A DNA stretch of 64,000 nucleotides from Selenomonadaceae bacterium (GCA_036733925.1 DAIMZO010000001.1:31605-95604); one strand, 5' to 3'; shown: positions 18,203 to 26,833, counted from the first letter of the stretch. Made by a program: numbers and translations. Notes: generated by a model not told the origin, from the sequence alone.

Positions 18203-18220
18203 AGAAAAGAAAATTGTATA

Positions 18221-18322
18221 GCACGGGGAGCCTGCAGGGGACGGTCGTCCTCCGAGCGGCTGAGAGGGCAGTGGAGCTGCCGACCCGGAACCTGATTTGG
18301 ATAATGCCAACGTAGGGAGTGC
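18221..18322 (+). promoter_or_regulatory. TPP (THI-box) riboswitch aptamer
   Basis: GCACGGGGAGCC...GGCTGAGAGGG...ACCCGGAACCTGATTTGGATAATGCCAACGTAGGGAGTGC contains the CUGAGA and ACCUGAU.UGGAUAAUGCCA.CGUAGGGA cores. P1 is GCAC/GTGC. Confidence 0.9.
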
Positions 18323-18341
18323 AGGAATTTTGCAAGAAGCG

Positions 18342-24650: not shown

Positions 24651-25313
24651 ATGATAGTCTATGCAACGCATGCGGGCGGGCACTATCTGCCGCTCGACGA
24701 ATCCCTGAAAGAACAGCCGGAGGGGAAGCGCAATCTCTATGTCAACATCACGAACCAGTGCAACTGCAGCTGCACGTTCTGCCTGCGCAATATGAAGAAA
24801 ATGGGGGCGGAGGCGTCGCTCTGGCTCAAGAACGGCGAGCCGACGGTAGACGAAGTGAAGAAAGCGCTTGACGCGGTGCCTTGGGACTATATCCGGGAAG
24901 TCGTGTTCTGCGGTTTCGGTGAGCCGACCATGCGCCTGCCGGAGCTGCTCGAGCTGCTGGCCTATGTCAAAAAGACGCATCCGGGCATGCCGACGCGCCT
25001 GAACACGAACGGGCTTGCGGAACTCCAGTATGGGGCGGACGTCGCGAGCAAGTTCCAAGGCATCCTCGACACCGTTTCCATCAGCCTCAACGCGTCGAAC
25101 GCTGAACGCTATTACGAGCTGACGCGCGCGCGTTTCGGGCTCGCGTCCTACGAGGGCATACTGACTTTCGCCGAACATTGCAAGAAATACGTGCCGAACG
25201 TCGTCATGACGATTGTCGACAAGGTAGAAGGCCTCGAGGAAATCGAGAAGTGCAAGCAGATCTGCGCGGCGCGGCATCTGAAGCTCCGCATCCGCCCATA
25301 CGAGGACTCCTGA
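24651..25313 (+). CDS. radical SAM protein (small, TatD-associated-type architecture)
   Basis: 220 aa. NITNQCNCSCTFCLR CxxxCxxC motif near the N-terminus. AGGAGG RBS. Confidence 0.8.
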   Translation: MIVYATHAGGHYLPLDESLKEQPEGKRNLYVNITNQCNCSCTFCLRNMKKMGAEASLWLKNGEPTVDEVKKALDAVPWDYIREVVFCGFGEPTMRLPELLELLAYVKKTHPGMPTRLNTNGLAELQYGADVASKFQGILDTVSISLNASNAERYYELTRARFGLASYEGILTFAEHCKKYVPNVVMTIVDKVEGLEEIEKCKQICAARHLKLRIRPYEDS

Positions 25314-25330
25314 TTTATAGAGAAACGAAT

Positions 25331-25374
25331 TAGACCGGTTCACAACGCGATGCGTGCGAACCGGTCTATTTTTT
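25331..25374 (+). terminator. rho-independent terminator
   Basis: TAGACCGGTTC-loop-GAACCGGTCTA followed by TTTTTTGTTT. Confidence 0.8.
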
Positions 25375-25822
25375 GTTTAACATAGATACCTGTTTCCCTT
25401 TTCTATTCAGTTTTCGCGACGAACCTTCTCGAGCAAGTCCCTCGCTTTCCTCGGATATGAATCTTCGCTTTATCTTTATGTTCAGCTGAAACATGATCCG
25501 GGACACCGTCACATCTTTCCATTTATCTGACGTTGTGCGCCTGACTTCCGCCGGCCTCGGGGCTTCCGCGGCAGCTCCCTGAGCTATCGTCATCGGCCCT
25601 AACCACGCCTGATGCTGGATATTCTTTTTCTTCAACTATGCACTTGCTAGTCAGTTCGGAAAGAAGACTGGTGATGCAGAATGATCAAATAACCTTCACA
25701 TCCTTTCTATGTTACTAGAAAGCGGTTATCCGTAAGAGAAAGGCCAATTGGTTCTGAGCTTCCGCCACCCGCTCGCCCTACAGGACTCCTGGACTTCTGG
25801 CTAGCTCCTTTTCTCTTTTCAC
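25375..25822 (-). ncRNA. candidate ~450 nt structured non-coding transcript (unclassified)
   Basis: Gene-free ~590 bp gap. A minus-strand promoter lies at 25827-25855. The minus strand is purine-rich with nested hairpins (e.g. 25689-25729, 25478-25494). No RBS-preceded ORF. It runs into the hairpin at 25331-25374. Confidence 0.3.
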
Positions 25823-25826
25823 TTAC

Positions 25827-25855
25827 AGTATAGCATTATATTCAGATAATTGCAA
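25827..25855 (-). promoter_or_regulatory. candidate sigma-A promoter on minus strand (TTGCAA-17-TATACT)
   Basis: Minus-strand -35 at 25855-25850 and -10 at 25832-25827 with a 17 nt spacer. It points into the gene-free region. Confidence 0.4.
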
Positions 25856-25990
25856 GACCTATTGTCAATAAATTTGATAAAAATAGAGAGAATTCGACGG
25901 AATACGAGATAGAAACAAGAAAAAACTTTTGGTACATGGCACGCAGAATATAGTATAATAAGTAGGATGGAGTGGAAGAGAGGTATCGAA

Positions 25991-26833
25991 ATGAAACATC
26001 TGATTATCGTTCGTGGCGGCGGAGAACTCGCGACGGGTGTGATTCACTGCCTGCACCGCGCGGGTTTCCGCGTACTCGCACTCGAAAAGGCGCTGCCGAC
26101 GGCGACGCGCCGCCGCGTCGCGTTCTCGGACGCTATGTACCGCGGGAAGATGACGGTGGAGCGCGTGACCTGCTACAAGGCGGAGAGTCTCGAGGAGGCG
26201 AAGAAGCGCCTGAAGAATGGCGACGTCGTGATGCTCGACGATCCGGCAGGCAAATGCATCGAGAAGCTTTCGCCTGCCGTCGTCATCGACGCGATCACCG
26301 GCAAACATAACTATGGCACGAACCGGGCCATGGCGCCGCATACGATTGCGCTCGGCGCGGGGTTCTGCGCGGGCCGCGATGTCGACACGGTCGTTGAGAT
26401 CGCACGCGGGCACAACCTCGGCCGCCTGATCTACGAGGGCTACAGCGCGAAGGACGACCGCAGCAACGGCTATGTCGGCGTGGATCGCAATATCGAGCAT
26501 CTCGTTTTCGCGCCGGTTGGCGGGACGGTCGATGTACTCCGCACGATTTCCCAGTTCGTCAAGAAAGGGGAGTCCATCGCGCATATCCATGGCGAGGACG
26601 GCAGCATCGTCGAGATCCGGGCTACGATAGACGGCGTCCTGCGCGGCGCGGTGCACAGCGGCAGCGAGGCCGAGAAGGGACAGCGCATCGCGGATATCCA
26701 CCCGACGATGGGGCAGGAAGAGTGTTTCACGATTTCGGATAAGGCGCGCTGCATCGGCGGCAGCGTGCTCGAGGACGTCATGGCGTGGTGGCATGCGAGC
26801 CATCACCGCCGCGGCTTCCTCTCGCGCCTGTGA
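25991..26833 (+). CDS. yqeB: YqeB/EF2563-family selenium-dependent molybdenum hydroxylase accessory protein
   Basis: MKHLIIVRGGGELATGVIHCLHRAGF N-terminus is typical of the YqeB family. ATG 25991 follows AGAGAGG. Confidence 0.75.
   Translation: MKHLIIVRGGGELATGVIHCLHRAGFRVLALEKALPTATRRRVAFSDAMYRGKMTVERVTCYKAESLEEAKKRLKNGDVVMLDDPAGKCIEKLSPAVVIDAITGKHNYGTNRAMAPHTIALGAGFCAGRDVDTVVEIARGHNLGRLIYEGYSAKDDRSNGYVGVDRNIEHLVFAPVGGTVDVLRTISQFVKKGESIAHIHGEDGSIVEIRATIDGVLRGAVHSGSEAEKGQRIADIHPTMGQEECFTISDKARCIGGSVLEDVMAWWHASHHRRGFLSRL

Follow-up and report, generated by a model that had tools for sequence, protein, structure and literature searches.

The 64,000-nucleotide stretch of Selenomonadaceae DNA analysed here (the window) includes a gap between the stop codon of a TatD-associated radical-SAM gene at 25313 and the start of yqeB at 25991. 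An initial annotation had described this region as gene-free and had proposed for it a candidate large structured non-coding RNA on the minus strand; the gap is real, and the RNA reading is supported in every part that could be tested. It is very likely that the locus is a stand-alone, vertically inherited gene for a large structured RNA of a new family, which would run on the minus strand from 25820 to ~25330 (~490 nt, rather than the ~450 nt first suggested), and it should be noted that there is no expression evidence for it. The flanking genes and delimiting elements are:

24651–25313, plus strand: TatD-associated radical-SAM gene (TIGR04100/TIGR04038)
25991–26833, plus strand: yqeB (TIGR03309)
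25850–25855, minus strand: −35 hexamer TTGCAA from the promoter scan, with TTG(C/T)A(A/T) at a fixed distance in 54/57 distinct homologues
25827–25835, minus strand: extended −10 element TGCTATACT from the promoter scan, with TGnTAnnAT conserved
25332–25367, no strand assigned: terminator hairpin with a 16-bp stem, common to the RNA and the convergent radical-SAM gene, as read from the sequence

The window promoter is near-consensus (TTGCAA-17-TGcTATACT), and a transcription start at ~25820 was inferred from spacing only. A lone match of this kind is not above chance (2 sites found compared with 1.1 expected in shuffles); the complete pattern, TTG(C/T)A(A/T)-17-TGnTAnnAT, recurs at the same distance in 54 of the 57 distinct homologues. 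The promoter originally annotated as TTGCAA-17-TATACT (25855–25827, minus strand) has held, and we add to it the TG extension and its conservation across genera. At the other end, a GC-rich hairpin terminates the RNA in all lineages and is followed in most by a U-run on the RNA strand. The window hairpin has a T-run on the plus strand only, with the RNA strand reading on as UAAUUCGUUUCU, and its poor RNA-strand U-tract is a caveat; it is homologous to the terminators of other genera in which a proper U-tract is found on the RNA strand, and the transcript end earlier placed at a hairpin at 25374–25331 holds as the homologue of these terminators (25367–25332). The Selenomonadaceae RNA is present as one copy per genome; its strong promoter, of the sigma-70 type, is conserved and it has an intrinsic terminator, while the transcript itself is inferred from the sequence alone (the conserved promoter, the terminator and the structured body), without expression evidence.

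The base composition of the region is the reverse of its flanks. On the plus strand between 25200 and 25874 the GC skew is −0.11 to −0.18 and the AT skew is approximately −0.15 to −0.16, with flanks of opposite sign, and the minus strand is G- and A-rich, as had been claimed when a purine-rich strand asymmetry was first pointed out. The minus-strand RNA folds better than shuffles (MFE z-score −3.6), and the distance from the −10 element to the terminator varies from 340 to 604 nt among relatives, with the window form at ~490 nt.

We found no known RNA family at this locus. At gathering thresholds the only Rfam match in the window was a TPP riboswitch outside the gap, and no credible match was found at E≤10 over 25250–26050 or at E≤1 in the long-form homologue L023, with the loose matches (C/D-box sRNA, mir-128 at E=0.17) being noise. 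The Infernal/Rfam search that the initial annotation had proposed has been run without a match to any family, including OLE, ROOL, GOLLD and raiA, and its by-eye observation that the region does not resemble RNase P, tmRNA, SRP or 6S RNA has also held. The genome has its RNase P RNA on another contig (contig 43, 292 bits), and the best 6S-like match is weak (contig 8, 36 bits). No oapA-like, oapB, oapC or raiA gene lies beside the RNA at the locus. Protein-coding readings fared no better: we rejected an 89-aa frame (25635–25366, minus strand) which has no Pfam match and is open only in the window and an 89%-identical relative, and a short 5' frame (MDMQTTTE) which was noticed by eye in Mitsuokella and is missing elsewhere. 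No conserved protein frame of more than 14 codons was found in the homologues examined. The decayed protein gene that was to have refuted the RNA is not borne out, since no other genus keeps the 89-aa frame intact.

Distribution and genomic neighbourhood

A BLASTN comparison with relatives identified patches that are conserved and colinear in four genera within the family, all at the same intergenic position. When the most conserved block (CTGACTAGCAAG...TGAAG) was used as an exact pattern to scan 185,579 species genomes, 29 loci were recovered, all of them in the Selenomonadaceae (Mitsuokella multacida, M. jalaludinii, Selenomonas montiformis, S. caprae, S. ruminis, Megamonas and rumen MAGs); ten more matches were due to chance, with every other conserved block missing. 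For family counts we used a covariance model built on the central domain (R1), which found exactly one copy in 60/151 Selenomonadaceae genomes and in 17/40 genera, including Selenomonas, Mitsuokella and Megamonas, with genera almost wholly positive or wholly negative for the RNA. The same model found no copy in 130 genomes from 28 other Negativicutes families. A further 29 copies are on human-gut and rumen metagenome contigs, and among viral contigs there were two pattern matches, both of which fail the covariance model and leave no confirmed copy, on which grounds a phage origin was rejected. The RNA occupies a fixed site in the core genome, and the open-access literature searched contains no account of an RNA of this kind in Selenomonadales. 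The family is very likely confined to a subset of the Selenomonadaceae and absent both from Rfam and from that literature.

The RNA was convergent with the radical-SAM gene at every locus in the first 22 species inspected. However, in three genera the radical-SAM gene is on a different contig from the RNA or 30 kb away, and in one genus rpsB is co-directional with and downstream of the RNA; more generally, the gene downstream differs between genera and is convergent in most genomes. The radical-SAM gene is found in 142/151 family genomes irrespective of the presence of the RNA and yqeB in 97/151, with whole genera having yqeB without the RNA and others the reverse. We conclude that the RNA is not a cis-regulator because its neighbours vary and its distribution is followed neither by the radical-SAM gene nor by yqeB. 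Control of the radical-SAM operon by antisense or attenuation was rejected on the variable neighbourhoods and a functional link with yqeB on the phyletic mismatch. Nor is a constant co-directional position upstream of a regulated gene seen, as would be expected of a riboswitch or cis-acting leader, and the terminator follows the RNA.

The three-domain fold

The RNA has a three-domain fold which is backed by many compensatory base changes and in which the unpaired junction bases are invariant. The 5' domain and the helix which follows it consist of:

25736–25815, minus strand: 5' domain, from the structure-blind MAFFT alignment A3
25815–25807 with 25743–25736, minus strand: helix P1 of the 5' domain, GAGAAAAGG with CCUUUCUC
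25808–25798 with 25767–25756, minus strand: helices P2/P3 of the 5' domain
25787–25773, minus strand: conserved AGUCCUGUAGGGCGA in the 5' domain
25751–25744, minus strand: palindrome CCAAUUGG, in whose place other genera have a GCC-GAAACA-GGC hairpin
25689–25729, minus strand: helix AUAACC (25729–25724) / GGUUAU (25694–25689), with counterparts in other genera that differ in sequence and were identified by eye only
25722–25703, minus strand: lineage-specific hairpin inside this helix

In alignment A3 the four helices of the 5' domain were paired in 75% of cells, compared with 39–50% when slid, with compensatory changes in 16/20 pairs and an observed value reached by 0/500 shuffles. One example is GGAGA/UCUCU, found in most genera, which is GAACC/GGUUC in the genus of the window. 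In that genus the 5'-domain hairpin is a perfect palindrome; the window has CCAAUUGG, and its relatives have a 16-mer, for example AUGCCGCCGGCGGCAU. Two inverted repeats had been noted earlier between this domain and the next; of these, ATAACC/GGTTAT holds as a helix, subject to the by-eye status of its counterparts, and CTTTCTA/TAGAAAG is a real helix and a lineage-specific insert.

The central domain is the basis of model R1 and consists of:

25514–25664, minus strand: central domain (model R1 and alignment A2), including the closing helix UCUUUCC (25664–25658) / GGAAAGA (25520–25514)
25654–25650 with 25531–25527, minus strand: helix H1, CUGAC / GUCAG
Minus strand, within the central domain: invariant junction UAGCAAG
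25643–25640 with 25538–25535, minus strand: helix H2, GUGC / GCAC
25635–25617, minus strand: UGAAG...AUAUCC, with inner helices also present
25585–25573, minus strand: hairpin AGCUC-AGG-GAGCU

In alignment A2, which holds 57 distinct sequences, model R1 gave pairing in 93.3% of the cells of the central domain and compensatory changes in 22/25 pairs; 0/500 shuffles reached the observed value, and sliding the partner by 1–3 columns reduced pairing to 25–40%. It should be noted that A2 was fitted to the structure model, which favours pairing. One pair in this domain is U-G in 41/57 sequences and G-U pairs are common elsewhere; both would be A-C mismatches on the opposite strand, and their frequency therefore fixes the RNA strand as minus. 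The closing helix joins a pyrimidine stretch 5' of CUGAC to a purine stretch 3' of GUCAG, and its partners differ yet remain complementary in most lineages (UCUUUCC/GGAAAGA in the window, and elsewhere UUUCUUUG/CAAAGAAA, CUUCUC/GAGAAG and UCUUUUG/CAAAAGA; mean duplex z-score −1.1). The invariant unpaired junction bases are UAGCAAG, GAAAGGAUG, UGAAG, GGAAGU and ACAAC. A pairing of GGAUGU with AUAUCC was dropped, as the UCC already pairs with GGA in a covarying helix.

The 3' domain consists of:

25478–25494, minus strand: hairpin HA, AUGUU-U[CAGCUG]-AACAU, with a 6-nt palindromic loop self-complementary in 39/39 sequences
25421–25440, minus strand: hairpin HB, GGACUU-G[CUCGAG]A-AGGUUC, with a 6-nt palindromic loop and a covarying stem
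25415–25403, minus strand: conserved single-stranded GA(A/C)AA(C/A)UGAAUA, within the conserved alignment block 25389–25415
25402–25389, minus strand: purine-rich Shine-Dalgarno-like stretch, 3' of GA(A/C)AA(C/A)UGAAUA

The two 3' hairpins and the helix enclosing them were paired in 85.6% of cells compared with 36–50% when slid, and a further pairing of 3' AUCUAUG with 5' AUAGAU was dropped because several genera lack the 5' partner. A column-pair covariation scan of a full-length MAFFT alignment recovered only three helices because the variable hairpins are misaligned, and domain-wise alignments were used in its place. The covariation analysis proposed in the initial annotation has in this way been run, and compensatory changes back helices in all three domains; the GC-rich pairings it had marked at 25545–25585 fall within the covariation-supported central domain, and its ATGTT..AACAT at 25478–25494 is the conserved hairpin HA.

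Palindromic loops and ribosome-like features

The loop of HA occurs in five types (CAGCUG, UAGCUA, CGAUCG, UCUAGA and UCGCGA) and is self-complementary in every one of the 39 sequences aligned. Covariation extends to each of the three mirror positions, the adjacent central bases among them (GC in 35 sequences, AU in three and UA in one). HB has four loop types (CUCGAG, UCGCGA, CUUAAG and UCUAGA), and these are palindromic in ~40/43 sequences if a 1-nt register shift is allowed. Longer forms of the RNA have extra palindromic loops, AUCGAU and UUGCAA, and a linear palindrome of 6–10 nt at one position (GUGUACAC, UGUGCACA, GUACGUAC, UGCACGUGCA, UGAUGCAUCA or GCGCGCGC), and short forms in the window's own genus are without most of the 3' domain and both HA and HB.

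Kretsch et al. used palindrome-to-palindrome covariation in support of the symmetric intermolecular kissing loops seen by cryo-EM in OLE and GOLLD (PMC12286853). As the central bases of the HA loop are adjacent they are unable to pair within one chain, and because the loops covary from palindrome to palindrome we infer homo-oligomerisation; HA and HB satisfy the criterion of symmetric kissing loops for homo-oligomeric ornate RNAs, which are a functional kind rather than a homology family, namely loop palindromes which covary into other palindromes, adjacent bases included. Copies joined by symmetric kissing of CAGCUG and CUCGAG would form a dimer or a larger oligomer, like those of OLE, ROOL and GOLLD. 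Counted per sequence, the enrichment of palindrome-in-loop motifs is weak (36 observed compared with 13.3 expected in 16 sequences, ~2.7-fold, with none significant alone) and the argument therefore rests on positional conservation. It is also limited by the small number of independent switches, approximately 3–4 per loop, by the short forms in the window's own genus that are without both hairpins, and by the one such loop that occurs by chance in the genome's RNase P RNA. On balance we lean towards an RNA that acts in trans as a self-assembling particle, a physical oligomer being inferred from sequence alone.

The RNA also has features which recall the ribosome or its messages:

25708–25697, minus strand: loop motif (A)GAAAGGAUGUGA, extended Shine-Dalgarno-like, within the AUAACC/GGUUAU helix and nearly invariant in alignments A1 and A2
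25647–25688, minus strand: candidate small ORF 'A' of 13 codons, (M)IILHHQSSFRTD, from UUG (25688–25686) to an invariant UAG (25649–25647)
25366–25383, minus strand: 3' mini-ORF AUG UUA AAC AAA AAA UAG (MLNKK*), with its stop at the 5' foot of the terminator

The motif (A)GAAAGGAUGUGA fits 12/13 positions of the complement of GGAUCACCUCCUUUCU, the 3' tail of 16S rRNA. This 16-mer occurs 4–7 times in complete family genomes, as expected for the 16S 3' end, and the window's own MAG has no assembled rRNA. A conserved UUG sits 7–12 nt downstream of the motif and opens a frame of 12–14 codons which crosses the 5' strands of the closing helix and the CUGAC/GUCAG helix, and which ends in 40/57 homologues at the invariant UAG of CUGAC-UAG-CAAG. 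It is open in 55/57 homologues, compared with 12/57 and 36/57 for the other two frames, and changes in the length of its span are mostly in threes (+3 in four lineages, −3, +1 and −1). This is weak evidence, as the comparison among lineage representatives is 23/24 against 15/24 in another frame and the bias towards 3-nt changes is borderline (approximately p=0.05 by a hand estimate), and the peptide of ORF 'A' is not conserved.

The AUG of the 3' mini-ORF was kept, on inspection, in nearly all distinct homologues (L007 excepted), with a purine-rich stretch upstream. The frame has 4–6 codons, five in most, and a UAA, UAG or UGA stop which abuts the terminator stem except in L004, L007 and L083; here too the peptides are not conserved. 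Both P1 (GAGGAG/CUCUUC) and the closing helix (CUUCUUUCC/GGAAAGA) set a Shine-Dalgarno-like strand against an anti-Shine-Dalgarno-like strand. A 12-nt Shine-Dalgarno-like loop is exposed ahead of a 13-codon frame, the translation of which would open up the helices that close the central domain, and the 5-codon mini-ORF stops at the terminator foot. These features suggest engagement with ribosomes without demonstrating it, and we hold this inference as tentative, with the balance slightly against it.

Alternative readings and comparison with known systems

The reading that is all but excluded is that there is no RNA gene here, only a decayed protein gene or a DNA-level element in which the palindromes are protein-binding sites. 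The open 89-aa frame in the window and the many perfect DNA palindromes speak for it; against it, that frame is broken in other genera and without a Pfam match, and a promoter and terminator flank the element in at least 50 genomes. The covariation refutes it, and so do the strand-specific G-U pairs, with which the helices stay paired on one strand only. It is also very unlikely that the RNA is a divergent member of the OLE, ROOL, GOLLD, raiA, RNase P, 6S, tmRNA or SRP families which the Rfam models missed. Its size and ornate architecture are alike, and OLE has been reported from all the Bacillota classes but the Negativicutes (PMC11332333), which leaves room for a replacement. Neither the window nor the long-form homologue gave a credible Rfam match, however, the RNase P RNA and the 6S-like match are on other contigs, and there is no oapA-like or raiA neighbour. 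A CsrB-like GGA sponge was judged unlikely from the fixed complex fold alone.

Two further readings grant the transcript and give it another role. As a cis element, it might be a structured leader that controls read-through at the terminator and yields a regulated antisense RNA to the convergent radical-SAM, pyridoxamine kinase and queF genes, or else a divergent regulator of yqeB. Antisense RNAs under riboswitch control occur in Listeria and Clostridium acetobutylicum, the first 22 species inspected all have the RNA convergent with the radical-SAM gene, and a ribosome at the mini-ORF stop, at the terminator foot, would impede folding of the hairpin. We nevertheless regard it as very unlikely, given the three genera in which the radical-SAM gene is unlinked or 30 kb distant, the one with co-directional rpsB, and the occurrence of neither neighbour gene (142/151 and 97/151) matching that of the RNA (60/151). 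The other possibility is an mRNA for tiny peptides or a dual-function RNA, whose main product would be the 13-aa peptide, the 5-aa peptide or both, and whose structure would be a regulatory UTR gating translation. In its favour are the extended Shine-Dalgarno-like motif, with the sequence of the 16S 3' tail confirmed in family genomes, the UUG frame (open in 55/57, with the invariant UAG end in 40/57 and length changes mostly in threes), and the AUG mini-ORF in nearly all homologues. Against this, the peptide sequences are not conserved, the conserved C-terminal residues overlap bases constrained as helix strands, another frame is open in 36/57, and a covarying structure of 300–500 nt far exceeds the needs of known translational control elements; we consider this reading unlikely.

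Our preferred reading remains that of a real and previously undescribed RNA gene which probably acts in trans and probably self-associates, and we consider this likely as a whole in the absence of expression evidence. A bolder reading, which we regard as no more than possible, is that the RNA represents a new large bacterial class forming a symmetric multimer through its palindromic kissing loops, with assembly or folding gated by ribosomes. Here the 12-nt Shine-Dalgarno mimic would load the 30S subunit onto the 13-codon frame, and translation would unzip the central-domain helices, while a ribosome terminating on the second, 5-codon frame would come to rest on the terminator stem; if true, the particle may sense or buffer free ribosome capacity in the Selenomonadaceae, in a class reportedly without OLE. 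Few bacterial RNAs outside the translation machinery are both large and highly structured, and RNase P, tmRNA, OLE, ROOL, GOLLD and raiA have each opened a line of research. The covarying palindromic loops amount to a sequence-only prediction of RNA–RNA self-assembly and offer a test of the idea that RNA-only quaternary structures are widespread, and the Shine-Dalgarno mimic and position-conserved mini-frames suggest a link between particle and ribosome which might connect with the binding of OLE by bS21. The hosts include cultivable gut and rumen bacteria (Mitsuokella multacida DSM 20544, M. jalaludinii DSM 13811, Selenomonas ruminis, S. caprae and S. montiformis, and also Megamonas), and genetics, Northern blots and cryo-EM are therefore feasible.

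Among known systems, the raiA motif RNA (RF03072) is a structured non-coding RNA of Bacillota with its own promoter and terminator, an unknown biochemical function and a possible ribosome link through the neighbouring raiA (PMC10861870). The Selenomonadaceae RNA shares with it the structured body, the promoter and terminator and the possible ribosome connection, but the raiA motif is only ~200 nt, its model does not match and there is no raiA nearby. The raiA motif RNA is a monomer. Long structured regulatory RNAs with a translated small ORF are also known, such as Staphylococcus aureus RNAIII/hld and Bacillus subtilis SR1/SR1P; these have conserved functional peptides, whereas the RNA described here conserves only the position and length of the frame.

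OLE RNA (RF01071; ~600 nt; Bacillota) shares with the Selenomonadaceae RNA its large size, ornate form, single chromosomal copy and many invariant unpaired bases. OLE forms a homodimer which includes a symmetric kissing loop with a covarying palindrome (GGCC, GAUC or AGCU; PMC12286853), and it has a mimic of the Shine-Dalgarno/anti-Shine-Dalgarno duplex bound by the ribosomal protein bS21 (PMC12054373), which P1 and the closing helix of our RNA resemble. The two differ in that there is no similarity of sequence or model and no adjacent oapA, oapB or oapC, and in that the Selenomonadaceae RNA has at least two 6-nt palindromic loops, an exposed Shine-Dalgarno-like loop and mini-ORFs which are undescribed for OLE. 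ROOL (RF03087) and GOLLD (RF01998) are RNAs of 580–800 nt, partly of rumen origin, which form RNA-only cages through kissing loops, including symmetric ones (PMC12286853). They are typically found in prophages or near tRNAs. In contrast, the Selenomonadaceae RNA does not match their models, has a fixed core-genome site, is unconfirmed in viral contigs, and its assembly is inferred only. A last comparison can be made with the hairpin of the HIV-1 dimerisation initiation site (DIS), a stem and 6-nt palindromic loop flanked by unpaired purines through which two copies kiss, and which has the variants GCGCGC and GUGCAC. The stem-closed 6-nt palindromic loop that switches between palindromes is common to both, but the DIS belongs to a viral genomic RNA and is a single loop, whereas the Selenomonadaceae RNA is the predicted product of a bacterial gene and has several such loops per molecule.

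A possible additional self-pairing site in the 5' domain

The 5' domain of the predicted RNA includes a conserved segment containing a near-palindrome:

25773-25787, minus strand: conserved AGUCCUGGAGG, containing the near-palindrome UCC-U-GGA.

The near-palindrome is unable to fold back on itself, and where other homologues carry UCC-U-GGA, the L083 lineage of homologous loci has UCC-GAAA-GGA, which is a proper hairpin. A perfect 12-nt palindrome (CCUGCAUGCAGG) occupies the site of AGUCCUGGAGG in the L084 group, which belongs to another genus, and it is possible that this site and its counterparts in the homologues constitute an additional self-pairing site.

The homologues L004, L005 and L006, from the same genus as the window, are short forms of 340–370 nt in which hairpins HA and HB (the 3' hairpins with 6-nt palindromic loops) are missing, along with the greater part of the 3' domain. 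These forms retain the 5' and central domains, the AUG mini-ORF and the terminator, and have a perfect 16-nt palindrome hairpin within the 5' domain.

The UUG frame and the shared terminator

An extended Shine-Dalgarno-like loop (25708-25697, minus strand) is located upstream of a short reading frame:

25647-25688, minus strand: 13-codon frame running from a conserved UUG to an invariant UAG, open in 55 of 57 homologues.

Length changes in this frame amongst the homologues are mostly multiples of three. The frame might be a translated small ORF within a structured RNA, or it might be a side effect of fixed spacing.

The RNA and the convergent radical-SAM gene have a terminator in common:

25332-25367, both strands: 16-bp terminator hairpin.

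It is followed by TTTTTT on the plus strand (the radical-SAM side) and has a poor U-tract on the minus strand (the RNA side); in other genera the gene and the RNA have separate termination signals. At L088 and L095, from another genus of the Selenomonadaceae, rpsB (ribosomal protein S2) replaces the radical-SAM gene and lies downstream of and co-directional with the RNA, while yqeB remains divergent upstream.

Likeness to known RNAs

The only Rfam match at gathering score across the window is a TPP riboswitch (RF00059, 61 bits; 18214-18336, plus strand) upstream of thiamine genes. Elsewhere in the genome, the top 6S RNA match (contig 8, 10424-10580, minus strand) scores 36 bits, below the Rfam gathering score of 46.4 bits, and may be a divergent 6S RNA.

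The Rfam search also returned a weak C/D-box sRNA-like match (E=0.17) in the central domain (GGCCGAUGACGAU...CCGAGGCC; 25573-25600, minus strand). A conserved UGAUGA adjoins a 3-nt bulge in this segment, and together these could form a kink-turn-like motif.
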